From positions 1-62,768 of the forward strand of contig JASLZZ010000116.1 in NCBI GenBank assembly GCA_030754595.1: a DNA stretch of 62,768 nucleotides, written 5' to 3'. The position numbers were made by a program, and so were the translations under genes. A model generated the notes under the pieces. It worked only from the letters and a program-made list of their open reading frames with translations. It ran no database searches and was not told the DNA's origin. Positions 1-15,247 of this stretch are shown piece after piece. Position 1 is the first letter of the stretch; every line of letters begins with the position of its first letter. This stretch comes from Nitrospinota bacterium (GTDB lineage: Bacteria; UBA8248).

Positions 1-142
1 CCGTTAAAAGATTCGACAAATCCATTCTCCCAGGGGCTTCCTGGTTCGATGAAGAGCGTTTGCACGCCAAGGTTCGAAAGCCAGTTTCTCACGCGTTTCG
101 AAGTGAACTCAGGCCCGTTATCCGAACGAATGTGATCGGGAC
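1..142 (-). mobile_element. IS3-family transposase (rve integrase core) fragment, runs off the left edge
   Basis: Reverse-strand translation PDHIRSDNGPEFTSKRVRNWLSNLGVQTLFIEPGSPWENGFVESFNG contains the SDNGxEF and PGSPWENGxxESFNG motifs of IS3 OrfB. Similarity stops at ~142. Not in the ORF track. Confidence 0.9.
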
Positions 143-145
143 AAA

Positions 146-402
146 ATGAAAGGGGGCTCCCCGGCCTACCGGATCACCAAAACAGCGCTTAACGCCCTGA
201 CGGGCATTCTCGCCGACGAGCTCAGGGACTCGGGCATCCTGGTCAACGCGGCCACCCGGGCTACTGCTTAACCGACATGGGCGGCCCGAGCGCCGCCCGC
301 TCGGCCGAGGAGGAGGCCGACACTACGGCCTGGCTCGCCACTCTTCCCGGGGGCGGGCCCACGGGCGGATTTTTCTTCGACCGCAAGCTATTTGATTGGT
401 AG
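146..402 (+). pseudogene. 3' remnant of a short-chain dehydrogenase/carbonyl reductase, frameshifted
   Basis: Reads AYRITKTALNALTGILADELRDSGILVNA (YxxxK). After a 1-nt shift near 253 it continues HPGYCLTDMGGPSAARSAEEEADTTAWLATLPGGGPTGGFFFDRKLFDW*. The N-terminal Rossmann half is absent. Confidence 0.8.
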
Positions 403-487
403 AACCGGCGTTCGCGGCCGGATCGGATTTCGTGTAAAACCGGGGCGTCACATATCACGCCCGGCTGGACCAGGAGCTCTCCTTCCC

Positions 488-1168
488 ATGACCGAAGATG
501 TACGGCAAGAAGCCGAACACCTGAGCCAGCGCCTTTCGGGCGCGGCGGATTTGGTCGCAAGAGAGGTTGACGATCTTTCCGGCGAGCGGATGACCTTCTC
601 CCGCGACGAGCCCGTCTGGGCCCGGTGGTCGGCCGAAGTTCAGCTTCGCCACATGGCCTGCGTCCCCTGCCGGTGGCTGCACGGCATTTTTCACGAGGGG
701 CTGGAGAACGAAGGATACCGCCTGCCGGAGGTGGACATGGAGACCATCCAGGCGGGAACCGACCGGCATGTGCCCCCCGAAATCTGCCCGGACCGTGAAA
801 CGCTGATCGCTCATATGCGGATGATGTTCGATTTTTGCCTGGAGATTCTCGACCGCGAGACGCTCGAGTCGCTCCGGGCGCTCAAATGCGTGCGGCTGGT
901 GGACACCGAGGCCTGGCGAGAGGATTCCCCCGAGCGGCCCATCGACTTCTGGCGAATGCTCGCGAAACCCCACCCCTACGGGGTGCACGAAGATCCGGAC
1001 CGGCCCGGCCATTTCCCGATGGAGCTGATCGCGGTCCTCCGGCAAATTTACTGGGAAACACTGGCCCACCTTCGCACCATCCAGCGGCTCAAGGGGCTGA
1101 TGGAGCTGACGATTCGGGCCGAGCTTCCCCGGGAAGGCTATCTGACCGTCCCCAAATTCTACGACTGA
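488..1168 (+). CDS. hypothetical protein, DinB-like helical fold
   Basis: WSAEVQLRHMA and ETLAHLRTIQRLK resemble DinB_2 motifs. ATG at 488 is preferred over TTG at 392. Confidence 0.5.
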   Translation: MTEDVRQEAEHLSQRLSGAADLVAREVDDLSGERMTFSRDEPVWARWSAEVQLRHMACVPCRWLHGIFHEGLENEGYRLPEVDMETIQAGTDRHVPPEICPDRETLIAHMRMMFDFCLEILDRETLESLRALKCVRLVDTEAWREDSPERPIDFWRMLAKPHPYGVHEDPDRPGHFPMELIAVLRQIYWETLAHLRTIQRLKGLMELTIRAELPREGYLTVPKFYD

Positions 1169-1177
1169 GCAACCGCG

Positions 1178-2212
1178 TTGAATCAAAAACCAAACCACGA
1201 AAACGAAAAAAAAAGCGGTTTATTTTCCTGGAAGCTTCTCGCCGGTCTGGCGCTCATGGCCGTGTTTCTCTGGCTGGCTTTCCGGAAAATACCGCTGGGC
1301 AGCTTCATCGATACGCTGAGGGAGGTGAGTCTCCTTCCGCTGGCGGCGGCGGCGGCGATTGTGGTTCTGTCCATCGTCTTACGCGGCTGGCGGTGGAAGA
1401 TCATGCTGGCCTCCTCCCAGCCCGAACTCAAAAAGCGCTACGCCGTCATGGCCACCGGGGTGGGATACGCGGTGAACCTGGCGATTCCCCGGGGCGGCGA
1501 GGTGGCCCGCGCCATATTTCTCAAGAGAATCGCCAGCACTTCTCTGGTGGCGGGCCTGAGTTCGGTCCTGGCCGAGCGCCTGATCGATGTGGTTTCGTTG
1601 TGCGTTCTTTTCGTCGCGACTCTCTCGCTCTATCAGCATCAACTCGAAGGCGTTTTTCCGGGCGTCGGGCGGGGAATGTTTTTCGCCGGACTCCTCGCCA
1701 TGGGGGGGTTCGCCGTCATGTGGGTGATAAGCCGCAATCCGGACAGGACCTCGGGGTGGATCGGGAAAATCCTTTATCGCTTCTGGCCCTCGCAAGCGGA
1801 AAGAATATCCGGCTGGGAGGAGAGTTTCTCTCTGGGGCTGGGGGGGGGGTTTGTCCGAAAAAATGCGCCGGCAATGATCGCCCTGACGGCCGGAATCTGG
1901 CTCCTCTACATCGCCGCCAACTGGACGATTATCTTCGCGTTTCCATCGACCCGGATCGCTTCGCTGACGGTCCTCGACATTTGCGCGGTCACCGTCGTGG
2001 TCGCCATTTCCTTTTCTCTCCCCTCGCCGGGCGGCACCGGGACCACCCATTTCTTCGTCAGCCAGATGCTCACCGGAATCTACGGCATCGATCCGGCTCA
2101 CGCTCTTGCCTACGCCACCCTGCTTCACCTGGTGGGAACCGTTCCGGCCCTTCTCCTGGGCGGGGCATCGGCCATGTTCATGGAATCCGTCAAAACCGGC
2201 GAGGCGTCCTGA
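1178..2212 (+). CDS. lysylphosphatidylglycerol synthase TM-domain (UPF0104) flippase-like membrane protein
   Basis: Multiple TM helices; RGWRW, NLAIPRGGEVAR, ERLID and LPSPGGTG motifs. Confidence 0.85.
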   Translation: MNQKPNHENEKKSGLFSWKLLAGLALMAVFLWLAFRKIPLGSFIDTLREVSLLPLAAAAAIVVLSIVLRGWRWKIMLASSQPELKKRYAVMATGVGYAVNLAIPRGGEVARAIFLKRIASTSLVAGLSSVLAERLIDVVSLCVLFVATLSLYQHQLEGVFPGVGRGMFFAGLLAMGGFAVMWVISRNPDRTSGWIGKILYRFWPSQAERISGWEESFSLGLGGGFVRKNAPAMIALTAGIWLLYIAANWTIIFAFPSTRIASLTVLDICAVTVVVAISFSLPSPGGTGTTHFFVSQMLTGIYGIDPAHALAYATLLHLVGTVPALLLGGASAMFMESVKTGEAS

Positions 2213-2434
2213 ACCACGCCAGGCGGGCACCTAAAGCCGGCCGGGTTCGGCATAATTAATTTAAGTTCTTTACCTCCGAATTCAGTCGAGATTAAATAGA
2301 AAGTATCTGGACTTTGAGCCCTACGGGTGATAAACCATTTTTCAAGTAACAAATAATGAATAATCCGGGGGGGGTCTGGGGTTTCCGCCTGCGGAAACAC
2401 ATCGGAATAACCGGTTTCATGGAGGGAGATAACC

Positions 2435-3091
<657 letters not shown>

Positions 3092-3100
3092 ACATCCCAT

Positions 3101-3152
3101 AACAAAAAACCCCGGCGGCTTCCGAGAAAGGCCGTCGGGATTTTTGTTTTGT
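3101..3152 (+). terminator. intrinsic terminator, probably bidirectional
   Basis: A-tract, stem CCCGGCGGCTT/AGGCCGTCGGG, T-tract, immediately after the prx stop. Confidence 0.7.
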
Positions 3153-3180
3153 CAGCCAAGAACTAAAACCTGACCGCACA

Positions 3181-3313
3181 AGCAGATTCTTCTCTCGCTG
3201 CGCTCGTTCAGAATGACAACTTAGTCTTTTGTTCCTTTCATTCTGAGGCAACTTTATTTTTTGTTCCTGTCATTCTGAGCGGAGGGCTAAAGGCCCGGAG
3301 TGAAGAATCTGCT
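3181..3313. repeat. REP/REPIN-like inverted palindromic element
   Basis: AGCAGATTCTTC...CAGAATGACA (3181-3218) is inverted against TGTCATTCTG...GAAGAATCTGCT (3268-3313). A partial third copy TTTGTTCCTTTCATTCTGAG lies at ~3228. Confidence 0.7.
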
Positions 3314-3431
3314 TTTTCCGCGATGCCTGCCCGCGCGCTCACCCCCGACACCCGCGCGTAATTCCACCCCGTCTGAAACGGGGTGGCCTCCCAGGTCTCG
3401 GGGCCGTGCTTATGGCCCGCCGCCTCCGGGT

Positions 3432-4175
3432 CTAGGGGGCGTTTCCGGCCTCGTGCTCGATGAGGGCCGCCTTGAGCGCCACGCCCGATCCGAATCCTCC
3501 CAGCTCGCCCGAGCTGGCGATGACGCGGTGTCAGGGTATCAGGAGCGGCACCGGATTCCGGTGAAGCGCTCCGCCCACGGCGCGGACCGCGCGGGGCCGC
3601 CCGGCCTCGGCCGCCACCCATTTGTAGGAGCGCGTCTCTCCGTAGGGGATCCGCTCCGTCGCGCGGAGGACGTCGCGGCTGAAGGGGGTGAGCGCCGAGA
3701 GGTCCACCGCCAGATCGAATGTTTTCCGGCCGCCGCCGAGGTATTCGTCGATCTCCTTGAGGGCCCGGCGCGATACTTCACCCGCCCCGCCGAGATCGCT
3801 CTTGCCGTGCTTCGCCCCGCCTCCCCCCCGGAGCATCCGCACCGCCGAAACCTCGTCTCCCGAGTCGCCGACCTCTATTTCTTTCCGGACCCTGGCGATC
3901 CACTTTTCAACCACCGGGCCGGATGGTGCTGTATGTTTCATGGCGCTTTCCTCCTTTTTCGGTCTTATCGCCTCGGGGCCGTCAATCATTTCGGCGGCGC
4001 GAATTTCCCTTCTCGCCGCCAGGCCCAGCCGGTCCCGCATCCAGCTCGAAACCGGGAGCTGGGCCAGCTCCGCCGCCCGCCGCAGCGAGCCGAGAAGATC
4101 GAGAGAGACACGGATGTTCAGCGGATGCCCCAGACTTAATTTTCGCTTAATATTCACCTTAGTATCGTAACGCAA
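3432..4175 (-). CDS. ogt: selenocysteine-containing methylated-DNA-[protein]-cysteine S-methyltransferase (MGMT/Ogt), possibly with an N-terminal RHH domain; alternative start at 3941
   Basis: IPYGETRSYKWVA and RAVRAVGGALHRNPVPLLIP-TGA-HRVIASSGELGGFGSGVALKAALIEHE. The TGA (3531-3533) replaces the Cys of the PCHR motif, and the frame continues with canonical MGMT sequence to TAG at 3432-3434. Confidence 0.9.
3500..3517 (-). promoter_or_regulatory. bacterial SECIS-like hairpin for the ogt UGA
   Basis: mRNA CCAGCUC-GGGC-GAGCUGG: perfect 7-bp stem with a G-starting loop, beginning 13 nt after the UGA. Confidence 0.75.
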
Positions 4176-4234
4176 TTGGCAGTACGTATCAAGTGCGAAT
4201 TGTGGGTTTTTTTGGTGATCGGATTTTCCGGGCG

Positions 4235-4630
4235 CTACCCCGGGCTAATCGCGTCCCTCGCCCGCTCAAGCTCCAAGACTCCGGGCGGGCGCCCGCCGGA
4301 CTCGACCAGCGCGGCGTCTCCGCCCGCCAGCTCCATCCAAAGGACCGCCTCGCCGAGATCGGCGTCGGGTGAGATGCGCACCGCCCTCGCCGATGATCGA
4401 TCCTTTCCCGCAAGCACGTCCACCAACTCGCCCGCCGTCAAAAAAGTTTCCGGCGCCCGGATGCGCTCCGAAATCTCCTCTCCGCGAAGAAGCCCGATCA
4501 AACGTCCGCCCCCGGCGCACACCGCCGCCCAGGGTGCGTTTTTCCGGTTCATCGCGACCCAGGCCGCGCGCGCGTCATCCTCCGGAGCGACGATCGACAC
4601 CGCCTGCAAAAAACACTCGCGCACTTTCAT
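4235..4630 (-). CDS. CBS-domain pair protein (divergent)
   Basis: MKVRECF..SIVAPEDDARAAWVAM..GRLIGLL..LTAGELV..ISPDADLGEAVLWM..GRPPGVL fits a tandem CBS pattern. Confidence 0.7.
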   Translation of the reverse strand: MKVRECFLQAVSIVAPEDDARAAWVAMNRKNAPWAAVCAGGGRLIGLLRGEEISERIRAPETFLTAGELVDVLAGKDRSSARAVRISPDADLGEAVLWMELAGGDAALVESGGRPPGVLELERARDAISPG

Positions 4631-4682
4631 GGATGTCTCTATTTGTCCGGCGGGGAAATCTCTTTGCCGGGGGGGGGTTGGC

Positions 4683-5465
4683 CTACTCGCCCCGGAATTC
4701 GGGCTTGCGCTTTTCCTTGAACGCGGCGAGCGCCTCGGCAAAATCCTTCGTGAAATTCAGCGGCATCCGGACGGCATTCGAGAATTCGATGGCCTGGCTC
4801 ATCGGCATCCGGCTGGTCTGCTCGATGACCTTTTTCGCCCCGCGCACGCCGAGCGGGCCGTTGGCCGCGATGGAGCGGGCCAGGGCCAGGGCTTCTTCCA
4901 TCAGCTGATCGGCGGGATAGGCCCGGTTGACGAATCCGATGCGCTCGGCCTCCTCGCCGTCGAAACGGCGCGCCGTATAGATCAACTCCTTGGCAAGACC
5001 GGCGGGGATCACCCGGGGCAGGCGGACCGTCCCTCCCGCGCCGGGAAAAACGCCAAGCGCGGTTTCGGGAAAACAAAGGGTCGCATCGGCGGCGGCGAGG
5101 CGGATATCGCAGGCGAGGGAGATCTCCATCCCCCAGCCGAAGGTGTGGCCGTTGATAGCGGCGATGGTGGGCATGGGAAGATTCTCCCACCGGGTGACGG
5201 TCTCCATGCCGAGAAGTTGATACCGGTCGGCGTCTTCTTTCGTGTGGGTGGCGCTTTCCTTGAGGTCGCGGCCCGTGCTGAAGGCGCGCCCTTCGCCGGT
5301 CAGAACGACGACGCGCACTTCTTTTTCTCCGGCGAGCGCCGCGCCGAGCTCGGTGAACTCCTCGGCGAGGTTCATGCCGAGGGCGTTAAGGCGCTCCGGG
5401 CGGTTGATCGCCACCCGGGCGATACCCTCGTCAACCGCGTATTTGATCTCCGTGAATTCGCGCAC
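4683..5465 (-). CDS. enoyl-CoA hydratase/isomerase (crotonase family)
   Basis: INRPERLNAL, AFSTGRDL, AAINGHTFGWGMEISLACD, FPETALGVFPGAGG, AFKEKRKPEFRG. Confidence 0.95.
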   Translation of the reverse strand: MREFTEIKYAVDEGIARVAINRPERLNALGMNLAEEFTELGAALAGEKEVRVVVLTGEGRAFSTGRDLKESATHTKEDADRYQLLGMETVTRWENLPMPTIAAINGHTFGWGMEISLACDIRLAAADATLCFPETALGVFPGAGGTVRLPRVIPAGLAKELIYTARRFDGEEAERIGFVNRAYPADQLMEEALALARSIAANGPLGVRGAKKVIEQTSRMPMSQAIEFSNAVRMPLNFTKDFAEALAAFKEKRKPEFRGE

Positions 5466-5501
5466 GCAACTCTCCCCGAAAAATTCGCCTCCGAGTTCCG
5501 T

Positions 5502-6032
5502 TCAGTTTTTGAGCTGTCCGGCCACCTCGTCCACGAATCCGAGCGTCACCGATTTCATTTCATCGGCGCTCAGATTGCTGACCGGATGCGGAAGTTTGAC
5601 GTAGGGGTGGCCTTCCATCCCCTTGCCCTTGAACTGAAAGTCCGCCGCCGTCCTGAAGGCCTCGGTGATCACCGTGGTGGAGGGGACTCCGCGTTTCTCG
5701 AACTCAACCGTGTCGTGCACACTGCACAACGTGCAGGAGCCTCAGCCCCCGAGGGCGCATATCACCACATCGCACTGGTCGGCCATCTCCGCGATCATCT
5801 CGTCCGGAGCCGGCTTCGAGTAGTGCTCCTTGCGGCGCACGACCACTTCCTTGACGCCGTATTTCTCGCGCAGCGACTCCCCCAACGTCTCCAGGATGAC
5901 GTCGGCCTGCTCCTTGGTGTTGTCGAGAACACCGACCACTTTCCCGCTCAGGTCCGGGGGACGGGCGGCGAGAGCCACCGCCTTGCTCACGCTCCCCGCC
6001 GTGGGATCGACAAAATCCATCTTCACCGTCAT
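5502..6032 (-). CDS. UGSC-family selenoprotein (176 aa, Sec97)
   Basis: ORFs 5742..6056 and 5502..5729 are in one frame and joined through TGA at 5742-5744: CDVVICALGG-U-GSCTLCSVHDTVEFEKRGVP. Contains LSGKVVGVLDNTK and LPHPVSNL motifs; RBS AAGGAG before ATG 6032. Confidence 0.92.
5712..5730 (-). promoter_or_regulatory. bacterial SECIS-like hairpin for the UGSC UGA
   Basis: mRNA GUUGUGCA-GUG-UGCACGAC: 8-bp stem (one G-U pair) with a G-starting loop, beginning 11 nt after the UGA. Confidence 0.7.
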
Positions 6033-6239
6033 GGCATGTCTCCTTTTCGGAATCATTCAAAGAATAGGCGGCTATCATATTCCCGGGCGAAGGGGCTGTC
6101 CACTGACCGAGAGGGCCCGCCCGAAAACCTCCCCTTCTCCCGCCGGGCATTTTATGCGAAAATCCCCCTCTCGCGGGCGAGGCCGACCACCCCCCGCCGG
6201 ACACCCTCATTTCAAACGCCGATCCCATGGAGCGATGCC

Positions 6240-8501
6240 ATGCCCAGTTACGATTTGGTCGGAAAATCCAATATCCGCTACGACGCCATTCCGAAATCGG
6301 ACGGCTCGGTGCCCTACGGGGAGGACCATCTCCCCGACGGGGCGCTTCACTGCGGGGTCCTCTTCACCCCGGTGCCTTACGGCCGCCTCAAGAGCATCGA
6401 CACCGCCGCCGCCGAGCGGATTCCGGGCGTCGCGGCCGTCCTCACCGCCAAGGACATCCCCGGAAAGAATTTCCGCTTCGGCTCGAACACGGCCACCCAT
6501 GAGGGTCAGCCCGTCCTCGTCGAGGACATGATCGAGTTCACCGGCGACGCGCTCGCCGTCGTGGGCGCCGAGACGAGAGACGCCCTCGAAGCGGGCATCG
6601 CGGCCATTAAGCTCGAGATCGAGGCCCGGGAGGGGGTGTGGACCACCCGCCACGGCGATAAAAGCGCGGAGGAGCGCCGGGTCTGCGATTTCGAGGTTAC
6701 GCGCGGAGACCCCAAAGGCGCTTTCGCGGAGGCCGATGTCATCATCGAGCGCACCTACGAGACCCAGCTCGCCGAACACGCTTTCCTCGAGCCCGCCTCG
6801 GGGACCTCCTGGATCGAGGAGGACGGCGTCCTCACCATCCGGGTCGGGACCCAGCTGATCGAGTACTACCGCGCGATGGCGATGATGCTGGCCGTTCCGC
6901 AGAGCCGGGTCCGCCACCTGGGCACCTACGTCGGCGGCGGATTCGGGGCGAAGGGGATGCTCACCGTCGAACCCTATCTGGCGCTGCTGACCCACCTGAC
7001 CAGGCGGCCCGCGCACATGGCCATGGGCCGCGAGGAGGGCTTCCGCTCCACGTCGAAAAAACATCCCTTTGTGATGCGCTACCGCACCGCCGCCTCGAAG
7101 GAGGGGAAAATCCTCGCAGTCGAGGCCGACGTTATCGGCGACGCGGGAGCGTACCCCTACAAATCGAACCTGTTTCTCCTCGGCGGCATGTGCATCGCCA
7201 CCGGCCCCTACGAGGTGCCCAACGCCGAAGTCAGGTGCCACGGCTACCTCACCAACAACCCCATCACCAACGCCATGCGCGGGGTGGGCTCGAACCAGCT
7301 CTGCTTCGCCTACGAAAACCAGATGAACCTCGTCGCGGAGGCGCTGGGGATGGGCCCCTTCGAGCTCCGGCGCCGGAATTTCCTCCAGAAAGGCGGACAA
7401 CTCGTCACGGGCCAGAAAATCGAATACGGGCCTGGTCTCGAGGAATGCCTCGACGGCGCCATCAAGGCGCTCGGCGAGCCGGCCAAACCCGCCCCCGGCA
7501 AGCGAATCGGCCAGGGCTTCGCGGCCAACATCACCGGCTACGGCCGCCCCATGGACTCGGCCGAGGCGGCTGTTCACATGGAGCCCGACGGAAGCGCCGT
7601 CGTCCGGGTGAGCGCCCCCGACATCGGCGCGGGCCAGGGCGCCACCCTCCAGACCCTCGCCGCCGAATCCCTCGGTCTCAGGCTCGATCAGGTCTCGACC
7701 CGGCTCTCCGACTCGGCGTCGACGCCGCTCTCGGGCATCACCGCCGGCAGCCGTCAAACCCTAATGGCGGGCAACGCCCTGAAACTCGCCGCCGAGGAAA
7801 TCAGGAAATCCCTGGTTAAGGGCGCGGCGACGCTCCTCGAAGCCTCGGAGAACGACATCCGCCTCGGCGGGGGCGAGGCCTGGGTCTCCTCCGCCCCGGA
7901 CCGCCGCGTCCCGATGGGCCAGGCGGCGTGCGAAGCCAAAAAAATGAGAGAGTCGCTTCACTGCACCCACGGCTACAATATGCCCGGCCACGAATACGAA
8001 AACCCCGAGCGCTACATGGGCGGTTTGGGCGGCTGGGCGGACTACACCTTCGGCGTGCACGCCTCCGAGGTCGAGGTGGACATCGACACCGGCGAGGTCA
8101 ACCTCCTAAAACACGTCGCCGCGCACGAGGTGGGAATCGCCCTGAACCCCACGAGCGTCGAGGGCCAGTTCGAGGGCGGCGCGGTCATGGGCATCGGCTA
8201 CGCCCTTCACGAGGAAATGACGATGACCGAGGGCGATTGCCGCTCGCAGAGTTTTCACGAATACCTGATCCCCACTTCCTCGGACGTGGGCGATTTCAAG
8301 AACGTCGTCCTCGAGGGCGGCGAGGGCGCGGGCCCTTACGGCGCGCGGGGGGTCGGCGAGCCTCCCTGCAACAACGCGCCGGCGGCGGTGGCTCTCGCCA
8401 TCAACGACGCCATCGGCGCGATCATCTACGAGCTTCCCATCACCCCCGAGCGGGTGTTCCGGACGATTCGGGAGAAGAAAAACGGGGGTGGTGGTCACTA
8501 G
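6240..8501 (+). CDS. xanthine dehydrogenase/CoxL-family molybdopterin-binding subunit
   Basis: QLAEHAFLEP, VGGGFGAKG, AMRGVGSNQ, TAGSRQT, VEGQFEGG, GARGVGEPP. The real start is MPSYDLVGKS at 6240; the upstream part of the 1441-aa ORF is antisense shadow. Confidence 0.95.
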   Translation: MPSYDLVGKSNIRYDAIPKSDGSVPYGEDHLPDGALHCGVLFTPVPYGRLKSIDTAAAERIPGVAAVLTAKDIPGKNFRFGSNTATHEGQPVLVEDMIEFTGDALAVVGAETRDALEAGIAAIKLEIEAREGVWTTRHGDKSAEERRVCDFEVTRGDPKGAFAEADVIIERTYETQLAEHAFLEPASGTSWIEEDGVLTIRVGTQLIEYYRAMAMMLAVPQSRVRHLGTYVGGGFGAKGMLTVEPYLALLTHLTRRPAHMAMGREEGFRSTSKKHPFVMRYRTAASKEGKILAVEADVIGDAGAYPYKSNLFLLGGMCIATGPYEVPNAEVRCHGYLTNNPITNAMRGVGSNQLCFAYENQMNLVAEALGMGPFELRRRNFLQKGGQLVTGQKIEYGPGLEECLDGAIKALGEPAKPAPGKRIGQGFAANITGYGRPMDSAEAAVHMEPDGSAVVRVSAPDIGAGQGATLQTLAAESLGLRLDQVSTRLSDSASTPLSGITAGSRQTLMAGNALKLAAEEIRKSLVKGAATLLEASENDIRLGGGEAWVSSAPDRRVPMGQAACEAKKMRESLHCTHGYNMPGHEYENPERYMGGLGGWADYTFGVHASEVEVDIDTGEVNLLKHVAAHEVGIALNPTSVEGQFEGGAVMGIGYALHEEMTMTEGDCRSQSFHEYLIPTSSDVGDFKNVVLEGGEGAGPYGARGVGEPPCNNAPAAVALAINDAIGAIIYELPITPERVFRTIREKKNGGGGH

Positions 8502-8507
8502 CCTCTA

Positions 8508-8569
8508 CCGAAAAACACCCACAAAAAAGCCCCGGCTACTCCCGGGGCTTTTTTGTGGGTGTTTTTCGG
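8508..8569. terminator. bidirectional terminator / perfect 28-bp inverted repeat
   Basis: CCGAAAAACACCCACAAAAAAGCCCCGG, 6-nt loop, then its exact reverse complement; lies between convergent genes. Confidence 0.8.
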
Positions 8570-8669
8570 ATTAATTATCGGCGGGCTCCCCTACTCCTCC
8601 AAAATCCACCAGGCTTCGAGGGGGAGCGGGTCAAAGCGGTCCAAATCGCGCTGGCGGCAGTGCCGCGGC

Positions 8670-9698
8670 CTAGGCCTCGAAGCGCCGCGACACGGGGCGA
8701 CTTGCGCCGTTCCACCCGTGCATCACCGCGCTGATGGGTCCGGGGTTTCCGCCCGCGACGATGATCATGAGGTCTTCGGGCGCCTTGATGGTCGGGACGA
8801 AGAACGAGTCGTCGCCCAAATCGACCTCGATGGGCAGGTCCTTGATCCGGTCCTCAAGGTAGCCGCCGCCGGTTTTGAGCTCGCCGAGGGTCTTGCCCGC
8901 CTTCTCGTAGAGCCATTTATGAACGTCTGTCTTGCTCCATCCCGCGGCGGCGCAGATTTTCGCGTGGTCCGGGCTGATCGCCACCACCAGATCCGACCGC
9001 CTGAGGGCGTTCATGCACCCGAGGTAGGCCATGGCGTCCACCGGACCGGCGAGCAGGGTTTCGGGATCGCGGCTCATATCGTCGAAAACGAGTTTTGGAT
9101 TCTCGCAGGCGACGACGGTGACCGCGTTGTCCCCGGCGGCATGGCCCCTCGTCACCGAAAGCGTCTCCCAGGGGCTGTCGCCTTCGTTCTCGCGGATGCA
9201 GTAGGTATAGCGCGAGGGTTGAGAGAAAGTGCTCATCGAGGTGACGCCCGGAATCCCCGCTCCGAGGTTCATGAGCATGAGCCGGATCGCGCGGCCGATG
9301 GTGGCGTTCGCCCGAAAGCCCGGACCGAAACAGCCCGAGCCGCCGTGCAGGCCGATTTTCTTGGCATAGGGGCCGTTAAATATCATGAGCGGGGCGGCGC
9401 TGTGCATCGTCGCCTGAACGCCGTTTATGTTGAAGGGCGGCTCGAGGATGGCCTCGATTCCGGCGAGGACGGCCGTAAGATATTCAGGCCTGCAGCCAGC
9501 CATGACCGCGTGTGTCGCCACCATTCGGACGCTCGCCGGCTCGTTCGCGGGCGGCACCTCGCCGACGAACGCTTCCGGGTCGCGGGAGGTTCCGGTCAAC
9601 ATGTCCTCGATCCGCCCTTCGGTCGGAATGACGACCGGCAGACCGTCCGACCAGGGTTTGTCGAAAAAAAACTCGAATTCATCGTCAGGCAAAGTCAC
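8670..9698 (-). CDS. uncharacterised 'DGLPVVPPT' protein (UGSC-associated type), paralog 1
   Basis: WSDGLPVVIPT, HAVMAGCRPEYL, GCFGPGFRANATIGRA, IIVAGG; GTG start after GAAAGGA. Confidence 0.8.
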   Translation of the reverse strand: MTLPDDEFEFFFDKPWSDGLPVVIPTEGRIEDMLTGTSRDPEAFVGEVPPANEPASVRMVATHAVMAGCRPEYLTAVLAGIEAILEPPFNINGVQATMHSAAPLMIFNGPYAKKIGLHGGSGCFGPGFRANATIGRAIRLMLMNLGAGIPGVTSMSTFSQPSRYTYCIRENEGDSPWETLSVTRGHAAGDNAVTVVACENPKLVFDDMSRDPETLLAGPVDAMAYLGCMNALRRSDLVVAISPDHAKICAAAGWSKTDVHKWLYEKAGKTLGELKTGGGYLEDRIKDLPIEVDLGDDSFFVPTIKAPEDLMIIVAGGNPGPISAVMHGWNGASRPVSRRFEA

Positions 9699-9740
9699 AA
9701 TGATTTTCCTTTCCAGGCGGGACTCCTCCCGAATCAACCG

Positions 9741-10763
9741 CTAAACGGAATACGCCCGCGACACGGCGCGGCTACCGCCGTTCCAGCCGTGCATGACCGC
9801 GCTGTGCGGGCCGGGGGCGCCGCCGGCAACGATAATGTGCGAATCGGTCGGATCCTTGATCAGGGGCACAAAATAATCGTCGTTTTCGAGATCAACCGCA
9901 AACGGGAGATTCTTCATCCACTCCTCGCGCCACTGGCCCGCCCGCTTGAGGTCGCCGAGCCTTCGGCCCGCGAGCGTGCACAGGCGGCCGCGCACCTCTT
10001 CGCGAGAGAGATCGGAGCAGATGGCCGCCTGCTGGGGCGAGAGGGCGAGGACGAGATCCGAGCGCACCCACTGGTTCCAGCAGCCGAGATGCGACATCGT
10101 GTCGGCGATGCTGAAGAAAAGCTGCTCGGGGCCGCGGGCGTAGTTGTCCACCACGAGATGGGGGTTTTCGCAGGCGACCGCCGTCACGACATTTTCGCCG
10201 GACGCGTAGCCCCGGCTGGCCGAAAACGCCTCCCAGGGGCTCTCGGCCTCGTTCTCGGCGATGCAGAATGTGTACTTTGACGGCTGGCCGAAGGTGCTCA
10301 TCGAAACCACGCCGGGGATCCCCCCGCCCAGGTTCAGGAGCATGAGCCTTATCGCCCGGCCTATCGTCGCGTTCGCCCGGAAACCGGGGCCGAAGCACCC
10401 CCGCCCGCCATACAGGCCTATCCGCCGGGCATGGGGGCCGTTGACGATGAGCAGCGGCGCCGAGCTGTTCATCGAGCCCTGGAGGCCGTTGATCCCGAAT
10501 CGCTCGTCCAGGATAGCTTCCATCCCCGCCAGTACGACGGGAAGATACTCGGGCAGGCAACCGGCCATCACGGCATGCGCCGCGATACTGTGGACGTTCG
10601 CCGCCGCGAAGGCGGGGGGTATCTCGCCCACCGGCTCGTCCTGCCCGCGCGAGGTTCCCTCGAGCATCCGGGCGATGCGCTCCTCGGTCGGCGGCACGAC
10701 CGGCAGACCGTCCGACCAGGATTTGTCGAAAAAAAACTCGAATTCATCGTCAGGCAAGGTCAC
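9741..10763 (-). CDS. uncharacterised 'DGLPVVPPT' protein, paralog 2
   Basis: Same motifs; the leader and first codons are nearly identical to paralog 1. Confidence 0.8.
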   Translation of the reverse strand: MTLPDDEFEFFFDKSWSDGLPVVPPTEERIARMLEGTSRGQDEPVGEIPPAFAAANVHSIAAHAVMAGCLPEYLPVVLAGMEAILDERFGINGLQGSMNSSAPLLIVNGPHARRIGLYGGRGCFGPGFRANATIGRAIRLMLLNLGGGIPGVVSMSTFGQPSKYTFCIAENEAESPWEAFSASRGYASGENVVTAVACENPHLVVDNYARGPEQLFFSIADTMSHLGCWNQWVRSDLVLALSPQQAAICSDLSREEVRGRLCTLAGRRLGDLKRAGQWREEWMKNLPFAVDLENDDYFVPLIKDPTDSHIIVAGGAPGPHSAVMHGWNGGSRAVSRAYSV

Positions 10764-10804
10764 AGCGATTTTCCTTTCCGGGCAGGACTCCCGCCGAAGC
10801 CGCC

Positions 10805-11833
10805 CTAGACGGAATACGCCCGCGACACGGCACGGCTACCCCCGCTCCAACCATGCATCACCGCCGTCTCGGGGCCGGGGACCCCGCCCGCGACGATGAT
10901 CTTCAAATCCCCGGGGTCTTTCACGGTAGGAACGAAAAAATCATCGTCGTCCAGATCGACGGGTATCGGCAGAGAGCGCATCCGCTCCTCCCGGAAGTTG
11001 CCGCCCCGCCGAAGATCTCCCACCCGCCGGCCCGCCATCTCGAGGAGGCGGCCGTGAACGTCTTCTTTCGAAAGGCCGTCCGCGGCGCAAATTTCCGCGT
11101 GCTGCGGGGCGAGGGCGACGACGAGGTCCGAGCGCGTCCAGTTGTTCCAGCTGCCCAGGTGGGCCATGGCGTCTGCGACCGCGATCAGATAACGGCTGGC
11201 GGTGCGGCTCGTGTCGTCGAAGACAAGCTGGGGGTTTTCGACGGCTACCAGGGTTACGGCATCCTCCCCCGGACGATGGCCCAGGCTCTCCGAAAGCGGG
11301 GGCCAGGAGCTTTCCTCTTCGTTCTCGCGGATGCAAAAGGTGTAGCGCGAAGGCTGGGAAAAGGTGCTCATCGAAGTGACTCCGGGGACCCCCGCCCCGA
11401 GATTCAGGAGGATGAGCCGGATCGCACGGCCGATGGTGGCGTTCGCACGGAAGCCGGGACCAAAACAACCGAGGCCCCCGTTGATGCCGATTTTTTCGGC
11501 ATAGGGGCCGTTCACGATCATCAGCGGCGCGACGGCGTGCATGGTGGCCTGAATGCCGTTGATGTTGAATGGCCCCTCGAGCATCGCCCCGGCGCCCGCC
11601 AGGACGACGGGAAGATACTCGGGTAGGCAACCGGCCATCACGGCATGAACCGCGATATCGCGGACGCTCGCCGCCTCCAGGGCGGGGGGTATCTCGCCCA
11701 CCGGCTCGTCCGGCCCGCGCGAGGTTCCCGCGAGCATCCGGGCGATGCGCTCCTCGGTCGGCGGCACGACCGGCAGGCCGTCCGACCAGGGCTTATCGAA
11801 GAAAAATTCGAACTCGTCCGATGGATCGATCAA
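10805..11833 (-). CDS. uncharacterised 'DGLPVVPPT' protein, paralog 3
   Basis: Same motifs; TTG start at 11833 follows the RBS GGAGGTG. Confidence 0.8.
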   Translation of the reverse strand: MIDPSDEFEFFFDKPWSDGLPVVPPTEERIARMLAGTSRGPDEPVGEIPPALEAASVRDIAVHAVMAGCLPEYLPVVLAGAGAMLEGPFNINGIQATMHAVAPLMIVNGPYAEKIGINGGLGCFGPGFRANATIGRAIRLILLNLGAGVPGVTSMSTFSQPSRYTFCIRENEEESSWPPLSESLGHRPGEDAVTLVAVENPQLVFDDTSRTASRYLIAVADAMAHLGSWNNWTRSDLVVALAPQHAEICAADGLSKEDVHGRLLEMAGRRVGDLRRGGNFREERMRSLPIPVDLDDDDFFVPTVKDPGDLKIIVAGGVPGPETAVMHGWSGGSRAVSRAYSV

Positions 11834-12100
11834 CCGACACCTCCAATTCTCGGCTGAGATAGTCCACGGCTGAGGGATGAGATGGGCCGCATCGAACACT
11901 CCTCCAAAAACGCGCGGGGGCGCTTGGTTTTTTTACGGGTGACCTTTTCTTCAGAGCCAGCAATTTACCGCCCGGAAACGTAAAGCACCAGCCTCGATTT
12001 TTTTCGCGGAGGGCGTTCGTGTGGCAAAATTGCGCACGAATCAAAATAAATTCCCGGCTATCCCTCAACCATCCCCCGGCTAAACCAAGGAGCTTGATAC

Positions 12101-12487
12101 ATGCCCATTTATCCGAATTTTGGGAGCCATCCGGAGGAGGGAATCTCCTATACGGGCGCCTCCGCCTCCTGGCAGCATGGCCGGAACCTGAGCGTCGGTC
12201 TGCTGCGAGTGGAGGGCGGCGCCTTCCCCACCCCTTACTACCATAACGACGAGCAGTTTATTTATATGCTGAAGGGGCGCATTCACATCGCCAGCGGCGG
12301 CGAAATCAGCGACGCCTCCCCCGGCGATCTCGTCCACTTCCTGCCCGGCGACAACAACGAAGTCGCCGCGCTGGGCGTAGAGGTCGCGGAATTTCTCCTG
12401 AGCCGGGGCCCGGCGCGCGAAAACCCGAACGATGACGTTTTCACGCCCGAGGGCGAGGCGGCGAATAGCCTGCTCCGGGAGGAGTAG
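12101..12487 (+). CDS. cupin-domain protein with degenerate metal site
   Basis: PYYHNDEQFIYMLKG and PGDLVHFLPG cupin motifs; RBS AAGGAG. Confidence 0.7.
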   Translation: MPIYPNFGSHPEEGISYTGASASWQHGRNLSVGLLRVEGGAFPTPYYHNDEQFIYMLKGRIHIASGGEISDASPGDLVHFLPGDNNEVAALGVEVAEFLLSRGPARENPNDDVFTPEGEAANSLLREE

Positions 12488-12595
12488 AAAAATCCGTTTC
12501 CGGGGAAACAAAATGTCCCAAACCGGTGTTCTCCATGATAGACAAGCATGTCTCCGGACATTTCGGCCATTTTTCATCTTAAGGGAGGTGTTTCC

Positions 12596-13489
12596 ATGAA
12601 GCGCATCGTCGCCGCAGCCGCGCTCGCGGCCCTGCTAGCTCTGCCGGTAGCGGCCCTGGCCGCAAGGGATTTCTCGAAGGTCAAGATCAAGCCCGTCCAC
12701 GTCGGAGGGAGCGTTCACATGCTCACCGGGTCGGGCGGCAACATCGGCGTCTCTGTGGGCCCGGACGGCCTGCTGATGATCGACGATCAGTTCGCCCCGC
12801 TGGCCGAACGGATGCAGGCCGCCCTCAAGAATTTCGACAAAGGGGGCCTCAAGTTCATCCTGAACACCCACTGGCACGGGGGCCACACCGGAGGCAACCA
12901 CACCTTCAGCCGGCTGGCTCCGATCATCTCGCACACCAATGTGCGAAAGCGCCTCACCCAGACCATCAAACGCGGCAAGCGCGTCTTCAAGCCCCGGCCC
13001 AAGGAAGCGCTCCCGGTCGTCACCTTTGACGATTCGCTCTCGATTCACTTCAACGGCGAGGAGATCAGGGTCATCCATTACCCCTCCGGCCACACCGACG
13101 GGGACAGCGTGATCTTCTTCACGAAATCGAACGTCGTCCACATGGGCGATCACATGTTCTCGGGGAGATTTCCCTTCATCGACCTGTCCACCGCAGGAAA
13201 CGTCGAAGGTTATACCCGAAACGTCGCGGCGATCATGAAAAAGATTCCGGCGGGCGCCAAGATTATCCCCGGCCACGGCCCGCTGTCGGGGCTGAAGGAG
13301 CTCCGCGCGTTTCACAGCATGCTGACCGCGACAACAGAGATCGTCCGCAAGCAGATCCGGGCGGACAAATCCCTCGCCGAGGTCAAGGCGAAGGGGCTCC
13401 CTGCGAAGTGGAAGGGCTGGGCCTGGCGGTTCATCAACAAAGGCCGCTGGCTCACGATTGTCTACACGAGCCTGTCCAAGAAAAAATAA
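12596..13489 (+). CDS. secreted MBL-fold metallo-hydrolase (cyclase-like)
   Basis: Signal peptide, GGNIGVS, IDDQFAPL, NTHWHGGHTGGN, GHTDGD, HMGD, IIPGHG; RBS GGGAGG. Confidence 0.9.
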   Translation: MKRIVAAAALAALLALPVAALAARDFSKVKIKPVHVGGSVHMLTGSGGNIGVSVGPDGLLMIDDQFAPLAERMQAALKNFDKGGLKFILNTHWHGGHTGGNHTFSRLAPIISHTNVRKRLTQTIKRGKRVFKPRPKEALPVVTFDDSLSIHFNGEEIRVIHYPSGHTDGDSVIFFTKSNVVHMGDHMFSGRFPFIDLSTAGNVEGYTRNVAAIMKKIPAGAKIIPGHGPLSGLKELRAFHSMLTATTEIVRKQIRADKSLAEVKAKGLPAKWKGWAWRFINKGRWLTIVYTSLSKKK

Positions 13490-13502
13490 GCCGGGCGCAA
13501 TT

Positions 13503-13545
13503 CAAAAAAAAGAGGCGACCCTTCGGGGATCGCCCCTTTTTTTTG
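13503..13545. terminator. bidirectional intrinsic terminator
   Basis: A8, GAGGCGACCC-TTCG-GGGATCGCCCC, T8, between convergent genes. Confidence 0.8.
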
Positions 13546-13555
13546 CGCGTGCGTG

Positions 13556-14026
13556 CTATTCGTTGATGTGCCAATCGTCTGTCATCTTGCAGCCGCTCGC
13601 TCTAAAAAGGTTATAGGCCGGGCAGCGCTTCATGTAGTCCGCGTTGAGCGCCTCAACCTGTCCGGGAGTGGCGTCGATCTTCATCCATACGTCGGTCTCC
13701 GCCTCGCTCGGATTGGATTGATAGCCCTCCTGGCCCCCGACGCCGCGCGGGCTATAGACGATTGTGGATTTCACCTTCATCGACTCGATTTCGAGCTTGG
13801 CGTCCTTGGCGCACCGCTCGACGATCACCGCCGTGCACCCGGCGAGCGAAGTCACCAGATCGCCCAGGGGCGAGGGGCCTTTGTCCGAGCCCCCGAGCCT
13901 CTTGGGCTCGTCCACGATCATGGTGTGGCCGCCCTTGACGGTCACGACGCTTTTGGCGTGGCCCTTGAAATCCGCCTCCTCCCAGTTTTCCGTCGTCTCG
14001 GGCACTTCCTTTGCTCTGATTGCCAT
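13556..14026 (-). CDS. OsmC/Ohr family protein
   Basis: DEPKRLGGSDKGPSP, SLAGC and RCPAY (two conserved Cys); RBS AGGAG. Confidence 0.9.
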   Translation of the reverse strand: MAIRAKEVPETTENWEEADFKGHAKSVVTVKGGHTMIVDEPKRLGGSDKGPSPLGDLVTSLAGCTAVIVERCAKDAKLEIESMKVKSTIVYSPRGVGGQEGYQSNPSEAETDVWMKIDATPGQVEALNADYMKRCPAYNLFRASGCKMTDDWHINE

Positions 14027-14044
14027 GGGTGTCTCCTGTAAGCC

Positions 14045-15247
14045 CTAGAGTTCCGTGCCTTCTCTTAAAATCGCCAAATAGGGTTCATATGCAAAACGAA
14101 TGTTTCTCCTGAGTCCCGGTCTTCTGACTAAAAGATTCTCTTTTTCAAATTCCTTGCACAATGTCATGGCTGTCGGATAAGACACTCCCAGAACTCCTGA
14201 AACGTGATTTGCCGTTACTATCGGACTCTCAAACAACAAACCCAACAAAGAATTGGAATTTTTTCCTTTTAATTTTCCTGAGGAAGCAATTTTTCTGTGC
14301 GCTTCACGCATATCAAGAATCGTATGCGCGGTTTCCACCGCCTGCTCGGCCGTCTGGATCACGCCGTTTAGAAAAAACCGCACCCACCCTTCCCAGTCTC
14401 CCCTTTCTCTGGTTGCCATTAGCATATCGTAATACTCGTTCTGGTTTCTCTTGAAGTAATAACTAAGATACAACAGCGGACGCGCCAAAATATTCTCAAC
14501 GCCCAACATGAAGGTAATCAACAAACGGCCAATACGTCCGTTTCCGTCCAGAAAAGGATGGACTGTCTCGAATTGCGCGTGCGCCAACGCGCATCTGATC
14601 AGCGGCGGGTCTTTTTTGTTTTCGCAAAGATATTTCTCGAATTCATGGAGCGCGTTTTTCATTTCATGAACTGGCGGCGGGACATACGAGGCGGTGGCCG
14701 GCGTGGACCCGGAAGGACCAACCCAATTCTGGATTGTCCGAAATTCACCGGGGTCTTTTTCCGATCCCCGAACGCCCTCAAGGAGAATTTTGTGTATTTC
14801 ACGTATCAACCTTAGCGAAAGCGGGAAGGTGTCGATTCTCTCGAACCCATGCTCAAGAGCAAGGACATAATTTATAACCTCCCTTGTGTCGACTCTGCGC
14901 TCTCGGTTTTTTTCGTCAATTTCATATTCAAGCACATCCACCAGAGACGCCTGCGTCCCTTCGATCTGGGAGCTTAACAACGCTTCTTTCCAGACATAGG
15001 CCATCACAAACCCATCCGGGTCAGGCAGTACCGAACCCACGCCATCGAGGCGCGCTAGGGCCCTATCGGCCGACGAAAGCAGTAGCTGCAACTCGCCCTC
15101 CAGCCGAAGGGGGGGATCGAGGGGAAGCGGAGAGGGAATGAACGCGCGGTATCCCGTGGTTTGGCGAACGTATCTCCCGCCCCTGGCCTCCGTACCCACG
15201 CTACCTTGTGCCATGTCAGCCAAACTCCCAAATTTGGGATAAAGCAC
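14045..15247 (-). CDS. Fic family protein (Fic_N + Fic + C-terminal HTH); start could be 15214
   Basis: HPFLDGNGRIGR catalytic motif; SSQIEG inhibitory-helix motif; lower GC than the flanks. Confidence 0.93.
   Translation of the reverse strand: MLYPKFGSLADMAQGSVGTEARGGRYVRQTTGYRAFIPSPLPLDPPLRLEGELQLLLSSADRALARLDGVGSVLPDPDGFVMAYVWKEALLSSQIEGTQASLVDVLEYEIDEKNRERRVDTREVINYVLALEHGFERIDTFPLSLRLIREIHKILLEGVRGSEKDPGEFRTIQNWVGPSGSTPATASYVPPPVHEMKNALHEFEKYLCENKKDPPLIRCALAHAQFETVHPFLDGNGRIGRLLITFMLGVENILARPLLYLSYYFKRNQNEYYDMLMATRERGDWEGWVRFFLNGVIQTAEQAVETAHTILDMREAHRKIASSGKLKGKNSNSLLGLLFESPIVTANHVSGVLGVSYPTAMTLCKEFEKENLLVRRPGLRRNIRFAYEPYLAILREGTEL

Follow-up and report, generated by a model that had tools for sequence, protein, structure and literature searches.

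A UGSC-family selenoprotein gene with an in-frame UGA and a SECIS-type hairpin in a Nitrospinota bacterium

The UGSC gene and its in-frame UGA

The stretch of DNA analysed here, referred to below as the window, comprises 62,768 nucleotides (nt) from a Nitrospinota bacterium (GenBank assembly GCA_030754595.1, contig JASLZZ010000116.1), and its minus strand carries a gene of the UGSC (seleno)protein family at 5502..6032. As judged from translation, profile scores, and the starts of orthologues, the gene begins at ATG 6032 and extends over 176 codons to a final stop TGA at 5504..5502. A single in-frame TGA, codon 97 (5744..5742), interrupts this frame; its conservation and the existence of cysteine (Cys) homologues indicate that it is read as selenocysteine (Sec), the U of the U-G-S-C motif. 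Read-through translation gives the peptide VVICALGG-U-GSCTLCSVHD around the UGA. The letters on which the original prediction of a hidden selenoprotein was built (TGC GCC CTC GGG GGC TGA GGC TCC TGC ACG TTG TGC) are present on the minus strand, and the proposed protein of 176 amino acids (aa) with U at residue 97 is borne out by the translation and by the orthologues, which are 176 aa long, start at the position equivalent to ATG 6032, and carry U at residue 97. The two "annotated" open reading frames (ORFs) that were to be joined also exist, as entries of a mechanical list made under translation table 11 (5742..6056, 104 aa; 5502..5729, 75 aa, TTG start), and it is only as mechanical entries that their annotation can be checked. 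ATG 6056 was rejected as the start because every orthologue begins at the position of 6032. A Shine-Dalgarno-like AAGGAG (6039..6044, minus strand) can be read directly from the sequence 6 nt 5' of ATG 6032, and a promoter-like TGGACA-17-TATGAT (6074..6102, minus strand) agrees with the consensus at 10 of 12 positions, a consensus match only.

The read-through protein matches NCBIfam NF041046, "UGSC family (seleno)protein", with 147.2 bits (cut-off 125) over positions 2-144 of 147 and Pfam PF24696, "UGSC family", with 180.6 bits (cut-off 25) over positions 2-170 of 172. U97-G98-S99-C100 is invariant in 19/19 aligned Sec forms, and what marks a Sec form, namely an in-frame TGA, a selenocysteine insertion sequence (SECIS) downstream of it, and Sec machinery in the genome, is found here. 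UGSC-containing proteins, with the motif UxxC, were described as a major family in the Global Ocean Sampling selenoproteome, which counts 255 Sec forms vs 21 Cys homologues, numbers that place them among the commonest environmental selenoproteins, and which mentions a fusion with a domain called "Unknown_1" (PMC2398784). A 2026 review lists the "UGSC-containing protein, NF041046" among prokaryotic selenoproteins of largely uncharacterised function (PMC13188914). The window gene is a further member of this already catalogued selenoprotein family and not a new kind of element.

The family was found in 43 of the 51 genomes of the phylum that were examined and in 41/41 genomes of the window's taxonomic family. 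Each of the 150 phylum matches listed contains one TGA (87 more are not listed). When the window protein was used to search the taxonomic family, the TGA was spanned in 39/39 full-length orthologue matches (62-99% identity); one further match, a C-terminal fragment at a contig end, stands outside this count. In a collection of species genomes, the TGA is kept at the same column in 80/80 retained loci (55-94% identity), together with the frame and the peptide 3' of it. The records of these loci bear the labels Nitrospinota, Nitrospinaceae, Tectomicrobia, Burkholderiales/Betaproteobacteria, Chloroflexota, and others; Nitrospinota-type labels mark the closest ones, a hint at the affiliation of the window's organism. 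Because 39/39 matches in the taxonomic family and 80/80 loci from other genomes keep the TGA as well as the reading frame before and after it, the arrangement is, by this comparison, more than a product of chance. A scan of 1.84 billion representatives yielded 1583 relatives at E up to 0.001, and 28 distant homologues, chosen as full-length and long forms, were fetched from 150 listed relatives. Formal alignment places an invariant Cys in the U column of 28/28 of them, mostly within CGSC but also within CGAC, CGGC, CGNC, and CGTS; neither another residue nor termination, either of which would have spoken against the original prediction, occurs at this column in these 28.

These observations bear on the alternative that the TGA is a true stop and that the locus consists of a gene of 96-104 aa and, after it, a 75-aa ORF that is unrelated or decayed, as in a split gene or pseudogene. 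The table-11 listing does give two ORFs, C-terminal fragments of 53-82 aa exist as separate database proteins, and the N-terminal piece of 96 to 104 aa alone is what public gene callers report: nearly all of the best 120 matches in a word-indexed protein search are 96-residue proteins that stop at the UGA. However, all 80 loci, which bear the labels of different phyla, keep the frame and peptide downstream of the TGA at the identities given above, full-length Cys homologues match the two halves colinearly, PF24696 needs both halves, and the genome has complete Sec machinery (see below). A true stop is thus barely credible. What the database entries show is a gene routinely cut short by gene callers at the UGA, and allowing for read-through restores the whole protein in annotation.

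Four metatranscriptome libraries from three studies supplied contigs that match the window with zero differing letters. Over the region examined (4600..6300), they cover 5287..6044 in parts, and two of them (5472..5777 and 5650..6018, from two runs) extend across the UGA by more than 31 letters in either direction. These contigs confirm the TGA in independent data, which matters for a second alternative, namely that the UGA is read through but not as Sec, be it by reassignment of TGA, by near-cognate reading as tryptophan (Trp) or Cys, or only apparently, by a sequencing error for TGC. Read-through by itself does not name the residue, and Cys forms of the family exist. Nevertheless, there is no general reassignment of TGA, because the UGSC gene itself ends in TGA and the neighbouring genes are intact under table 11; nor is the TGA a sequencing error, because it is kept in 80/80 independent assemblies and in the RNA-library contigs. 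Moreover, a selected SECIS-type hairpin follows the TGA, and both tRNA-Sec and SelB are present. This second alternative is considered very improbable.

The hairpin after the UGA and the decoding machinery

According to folds and conservation, a SECIS hairpin lies within the coding sequence at 5712..5730 (minus strand). It has an 8-bp stem (5730..5723 with 5719..5712) and the loop GUG (5722..5720), and it is separated from the UGA by an 11-nt spacer, GGCUCCUGCAC, which is followed by GUUGUGCA-GUG-UGCACGAC. The hairpin 5730..5712 is the minimum-free-energy element. The bacterial SECIS consensus summarised in the Fig. 2 legend of PMC13188914 allows 3-9 nt for the apical loop and 4-16 bp for the upper stem that carries it; G should occupy one or both of the first two loop positions (mostly as GG or GU), the loop should lie 16-37 nt from the UGA, and the free energy should be -7.5 kcal/mol or lower. 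The window element has a loop of 3 nt on a stem of 8 bp, a loop that starts with G (GUG; GUU, GUA, or UGUAU in paralogues), a UGA-to-loop distance of 19 nt (the 11-nt spacer plus the 8-nt stem arm), and a free energy of -10.3 kcal/mol for the hairpin alone. The 8-bp hairpin with a GUG loop that was predicted 11 nt 3' of the UGA is therefore present and agrees with the bacterial SECIS layout in all four respects. A lower-stem extension, formed in the minimum-free-energy fold by the bases just after the UGA, was excluded from the element because synonymous sites on its 3' side vary without constraint.

Synonymous sites were analysed in 28 orthologue coding sequences, two of the 30 family loci (178 and 182 aa) having been left out. 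Codons 101-107 (ACG TTG TGC AGT GTG CAC GAC) are identical at every base in 28/28, including the four- and sixfold degenerate codons for Thr, Leu, Ser, and Val, and the flanking codons vary freely. Mean synonymous entropy is 0.28 in codons 98-109 vs 0.86 in the rest of the gene; only 4 of 165 twelve-codon windows reach so low a value, and all four overlap the hairpin. Among 62 distinct orthologue sequences across taxa, 496/496 stem cells are paired. In particular, pair G18-C30 is replaced by A-U in four sequences, through TTG to TTA and CAC to CAT (both synonymous), and by G-U in two. Across paralogue groups (40 distinct sequences), three of the eight pairs change on both sides; one change from C-G to G-C turns Cys-x-Val into Trp-x-Ile, and another pair passes from G-C to A-U via two synonymous changes. 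Judged by these comparisons, the hairpin is of the SECIS type and under selection, and the locus adds an unusually clean SECIS example, in which synonymous-site invariance is combined with compensatory changes.

A 6-bp hairpin, CUGCAC-GUU-GUGCAG (5722..5736, minus strand), overlaps the 5' arm of the SECIS, and it was suggested at the outset that, as a competitor of the SECIS stem, it might tune read-through. This hairpin exists in the sequence, can form with -7.5 kcal/mol, and is paired in 94.1% of cells among orthologues. However, its ensemble pair probability is 0.01-0.04 vs 0.63-0.95 for the SECIS stem, and it shows 0 compensatory changes in both the orthologue and the paralogue alignments. 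When a change falls in the shared arm, it is the SECIS pair that is repaired, whereas the competing pair stays broken; among orthologues, the broken cells number 4 at pair 14-18 and 18 at pair 9-23, and across paralogues pair 10-22 is broken in 20/40 sequences. The TGC codons of the CxxC motif by themselves account for the arms of the competing hairpin. Moreover, when a UGA occupies the A site of a bacterial ribosome, the bases 6-11 nt after it lie inside the mRNA channel, which is where the 5' arm of the competing hairpin would sit. We conclude from these comparisons that the overlapping hairpin, though present, is a by-product that is not under selection, and that the tuning of Sec insertion by it, the one part of the first interpretation that did not stand, is improbable.

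The assembly (138 contigs, 96.9% complete) contains the whole set of Sec decoding genes: tRNA-Sec (73.6 bits, above the cut-off; called by ARAGORN as tRNA-SeC with anticodon TCA), SelB (364.5 bits), SelA (551.8 bits), and SelD (345 bits), the three proteins scoring above their curated cut-offs. The lack of tRNA-Sec or SelB had been named as grounds for giving up the original prediction; both are there, along with SelA and SelD. The selD gene (C16:24543-25505) has one in-frame TGA of its own, which makes SelD itself a selenoprotein.

Two further UGSC genes, each with exactly one TGA, lie on other contigs (C109:40013-40450 and C84:40065-40496). The family is expanded in this lineage, with three Sec-type copies in the window's genome and as many as 9 matches per genome among relatives, and each paralogue has its own SECIS variant, the loops being GUG, GUU, GUA, and UGUAU. 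Downstream of the C84 paralogue lies a gene for a flavoprotein of the succinate-dehydrogenase/fumarate-reductase type (PF00890, 243.5 bits), a possible electron partner.

Neighbouring genes and the partner family

An enoyl-CoA hydratase gene (4683..5465, minus strand; PF00378, 201.6 bits) lies 36 nt downstream of the UGSC gene; no terminator-like site was found in this 36-nt gap, and the two genes are probably co-transcribed. The end of the hydratase gene is overlapped by an ORF at 4235..4741 (minus strand) with a faint CBS-domain hint (E 0.099), which is kept beside the hydratase in the window's genus and at one further locus (L091). On the other side, at 6240..8501 on the plus strand, lies a gene for a molybdopterin subunit of the xanthine-dehydrogenase (XDH) family (PF02738, PF20256, and PF01315). 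It scores below every NCBIfam equivalog cut-off, the best values being 400 vs 784 bits for pucD and 382 vs 995 for 4-hydroxybenzoyl-CoA reductase alpha. Three genes for [2Fe-2S] subunits of XDH-type enzymes (Fer2_2 matches) are located on three other contigs, and none in the 62.8-kb window.

The XDH-like gene points away from the UGSC gene and towards three tandem genes on the UGSC strand (8670..11899), which encode members of a partner family of ~340 aa and are 63-69% identical to each other. Copy 3 (8670..9737), with the motifs DKPWSDGLPVV, AVMAGC, and RANATIGRA, and copy 1 (10805..11899), whose true start is probably internal, were delimited by translation and alignment. Copy 2 (9744..10763) has a GTG start and is 46-58% identical to partner genes of other taxa, which are located on the UGSC strand and mostly directly upstream of the UGSC orthologue. 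In the alignment, the family is characterised by the motifs GW(S/T)DGLPVVPPT, AVMAGC (whose Cys is invariant), RANATIGRA, and ENE..SPW; no Pfam or NCBIfam family matched the partner genes. An AlphaFold2 model of copy 2 has a predicted local distance difference test score (pLDDT) of 86.1. Class-I fumarate hydratase, the best Foldseek match of this model, was rejected as a relative (template-modelling score, TM, 0.28; root-mean-square deviation 17).

The association of this family with UGSC extends well beyond the window. A partner gene encoding 330-366 aa lies directly upstream of both other UGSC paralogues in the genome, and in a complete related genome a partner gene adjoins 5 of the 6 fetched UGSC loci; the sixth is the orthologue of the window's locus, where the partner gene stands beyond the XDH-like gene. 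In other proteins, 485-657 aa in length, a Cys-type UGSC domain is followed by a fused partner domain, and one protein joins a Cys-type UGSC domain to a pyridine-nucleotide-disulphide oxidoreductase. Another Cys-type UGSC protein is fused to a TetR N-terminal domain, which may be a gene-calling artefact. Within the taxonomic family, the XDH-like gene is found at 29/29 and the enoyl-CoA hydratase gene at 28/29 of the other orthologue loci, the single miss being at a contig end. Elsewhere, a partner gene occurs within 2.5 kb and on the same strand in 60/80 orthologous loci, mostly directly upstream, whereas the XDH-like gene is found at only 15/80 and the hydratase gene at 19/80. Because the partner is common at loci elsewhere and the XDH-like gene is uncommon there, it is concluded from gene order that partner and UGSC form an ancestral unit into which the XDH gene was inserted in a clade-specific manner.

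The window carries a second hidden selenoprotein gene, for an Ogt/MGMT-like methyltransferase (3435..3998, minus strand), with an in-frame TGA at 3533..3531. The TGA replaces the alkyl-acceptor Cys (NPVPLLIP-U-HRVIASSGELGG), and PF01035 matches the read-through product with 107.4 bits over positions 1-80 of 81, compared with 60.9 bits over positions 1-51 for the truncated ORF. A 7-bp hairpin with the loop GGGC starts 13 nt past the UGA. The Sec form of this family is listed in the review cited above (PMC13188914).

Predicted fold, proposed function, and relation to known systems

An AlphaFold2 model built from the 19 aligned Sec forms (pLDDT 84.6) contains five beta-alpha units, and the UGSC protein is accordingly predicted to be a Rossmann/flavodoxin-like alpha/beta domain. 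In the model, U97 lies in a loop between the strand 89-94 and the helix 102-113. U97, G98, S99, C100, T101, C103, H106, and D107, as well as H149 and P150, are invariant among the 19 Sec forms. Structure searches with Foldseek and VIA-align gave numerous unrelated chains of the Rossmann/flavodoxin-like type, with TM no higher than 0.5 and Z of 9-11; as generic alpha/beta folds, these matches were rejected as a guide to function. A search of solved structures by sequence with a UGSC profile gave nothing below E 0.4. Weak NCBIfam matches to selenoprotein B of glycine/sarcosine/betaine reductase and D-proline reductase, centred on Sec, were obtained with GrdB for 16, PrdB for 12, and GrdH for 10 of the 19 UGSC proteins; TIGR01917 gave 15 bits vs a cut-off of 602.2 for the window protein, and the best E-value among the 19 members was 0.00046. 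The GRDB family PF07355 is absent from the Pfam matches of the 19 proteins at E up to 10. Such profile similarity hints at a remote kinship with selenoprotein B, not at membership. No pyruvoyl-proprotein or selenoprotein A family was found among the window ORFs scanned in 1..15247; GrdE, PrdA, and GrdA were not searched genome-wide.

In bacterial Sec decoding, SelB binds a SECIS hairpin and brings Sec-tRNA(Sec) to the UGA. When a ribosome reaches the UGA at 5744..5742, the hairpin 5730..5712, its base 11 nt from the codon, would stand at the mRNA entry and recruit SelB with Sec-tRNA(Sec), and Sec would be inserted as residue 97. The second TGA (5504..5502), which is not followed by such an element, would cause termination. 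The position of U97 in the loop, together with C103, H106, and D107, suggests that U97 and C100 form a selenol/thiol (selenenylsulfide) redox centre. UGSC would most likely be the redox-active subunit and the ~340-aa "GW(S/T)DGLPVVPPT" protein the other part of the enzyme. We infer that this two-part enzyme is fed by a thiol or by a reductase, the likely electron source being a thioredoxin-reductase-like flavoprotein or a thiol.

What comparison shows is a single gene whose UGA is under purifying selection and whose homologues carry Cys, a SECIS-type hairpin that is selected, and complete Sec machinery. Taken jointly, the gene 6032..5505 is read as encoding a UGSC selenoprotein, with the UGA decoded as Sec via the hairpin and the product a likely redox subunit of a two-part enzyme, a reading to which we assign a probability of roughly 0.93; the first interpretation is thus supported except for the tuning discussed above. 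Several points weigh against this reading. The evidence that Sec is inserted at residue 97 is comparative and does not come from protein chemistry. The 71-nt region folds no better than its shuffles (z -0.45) and is not unusually stable, so that the hairpin has to be argued for from its conservation. The hairpin overlies the invariant peptide C-T-L-C-S-V-H-D, so that its conservation is partly protein constraint; the compared sequences are related and not independent, and the shuffle control overstates the evidence. An Rfam scan of 5400..6150 gave only noise (E 2.9-5.9). As metatranscriptome libraries can carry DNA, and the contigs may contain it, they are only weak evidence of transcription. 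As regards function, the predicted fold matches only generic Rossmann/flavodoxin-like structures, the similarity to GrdB and PrdB is far below cut-off, and no convincing solved structural relative of the partner was found (best TM 0.28). Moreover, the partner genes are not adjacent to UGSC in the window's clade and lie beyond the convergent XDH-like gene.

By analogy with protein B of the glycine and proline reductases, UGSC and its partner might be the two subunits of an undescribed selenium-dependent reductase, wired in this clade to the lone XDH-family subunit and the enoyl-CoA hydratase; this is an unlikely, speculative extension. If true, such a connection would suggest that the substrate is an acyl-CoA or an N-heterocyclic compound, with UGSC as the electron entry for the molybdoenzyme. 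The clade-specific neighbourhood, consisting of the XDH-like subunit, the enoyl-CoA hydratase, and three partner genes, could guide a search for the substrate. What interest the locus retains is modest and concerns what the UGSC-partner pair does, along with the clade-specific association of the pair with the XDH-like subunit and the hydratase.

Among known systems, the element resembles the bacterial SECIS consensus in being an in-frame hairpin right after the UGA with an 8-bp stem and a 3-nt loop starting with GU. The E. coli fdhF element is longer and less simple and has a bulged U, which the window element lacks. With thioredoxin-fold selenoproteins of the UxxC/CxxU type (thioredoxin-, peroxiredoxin-, and SelW-like), UGSC shares a UxxC just before the N-terminus of a helix and, presumably, a role in thiol/selenol exchange. 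In contrast to these proteins, its sheet is predicted to be beta-alpha-beta throughout, and no thioredoxin-fold entry stands among the structural matches listed for the model, although unlisted ones could include one. The ocean survey (PMC2398784) had guessed at a "likely Trx-like fold", from which the Rossmann/flavodoxin-like fold predicted here also differs. With selenoprotein B (GrdB, GrdF, GrdH, and PrdB), UGSC has in common a weak but repeated profile similarity around Sec, the presence of UxxC, and the fact that it is paired with another protein larger than itself. However, it comprises only 176 aa, its scores are far below cut-off, and its partner family shows no sequence relationship to any named one. 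From the UGSC family itself (NF041046/PF24696), the window gene differs in nothing essential: it shares the U-G-S-C motif and the length class, and, as described in PMC2398784, the Sec form dominates over the Cys form and fusions to an unknown domain occur. Local to the window's clade is the arrangement of the locus, in which an XDH-like gene parts the UGSC gene from its partner genes and an enoyl-CoA hydratase gene follows.

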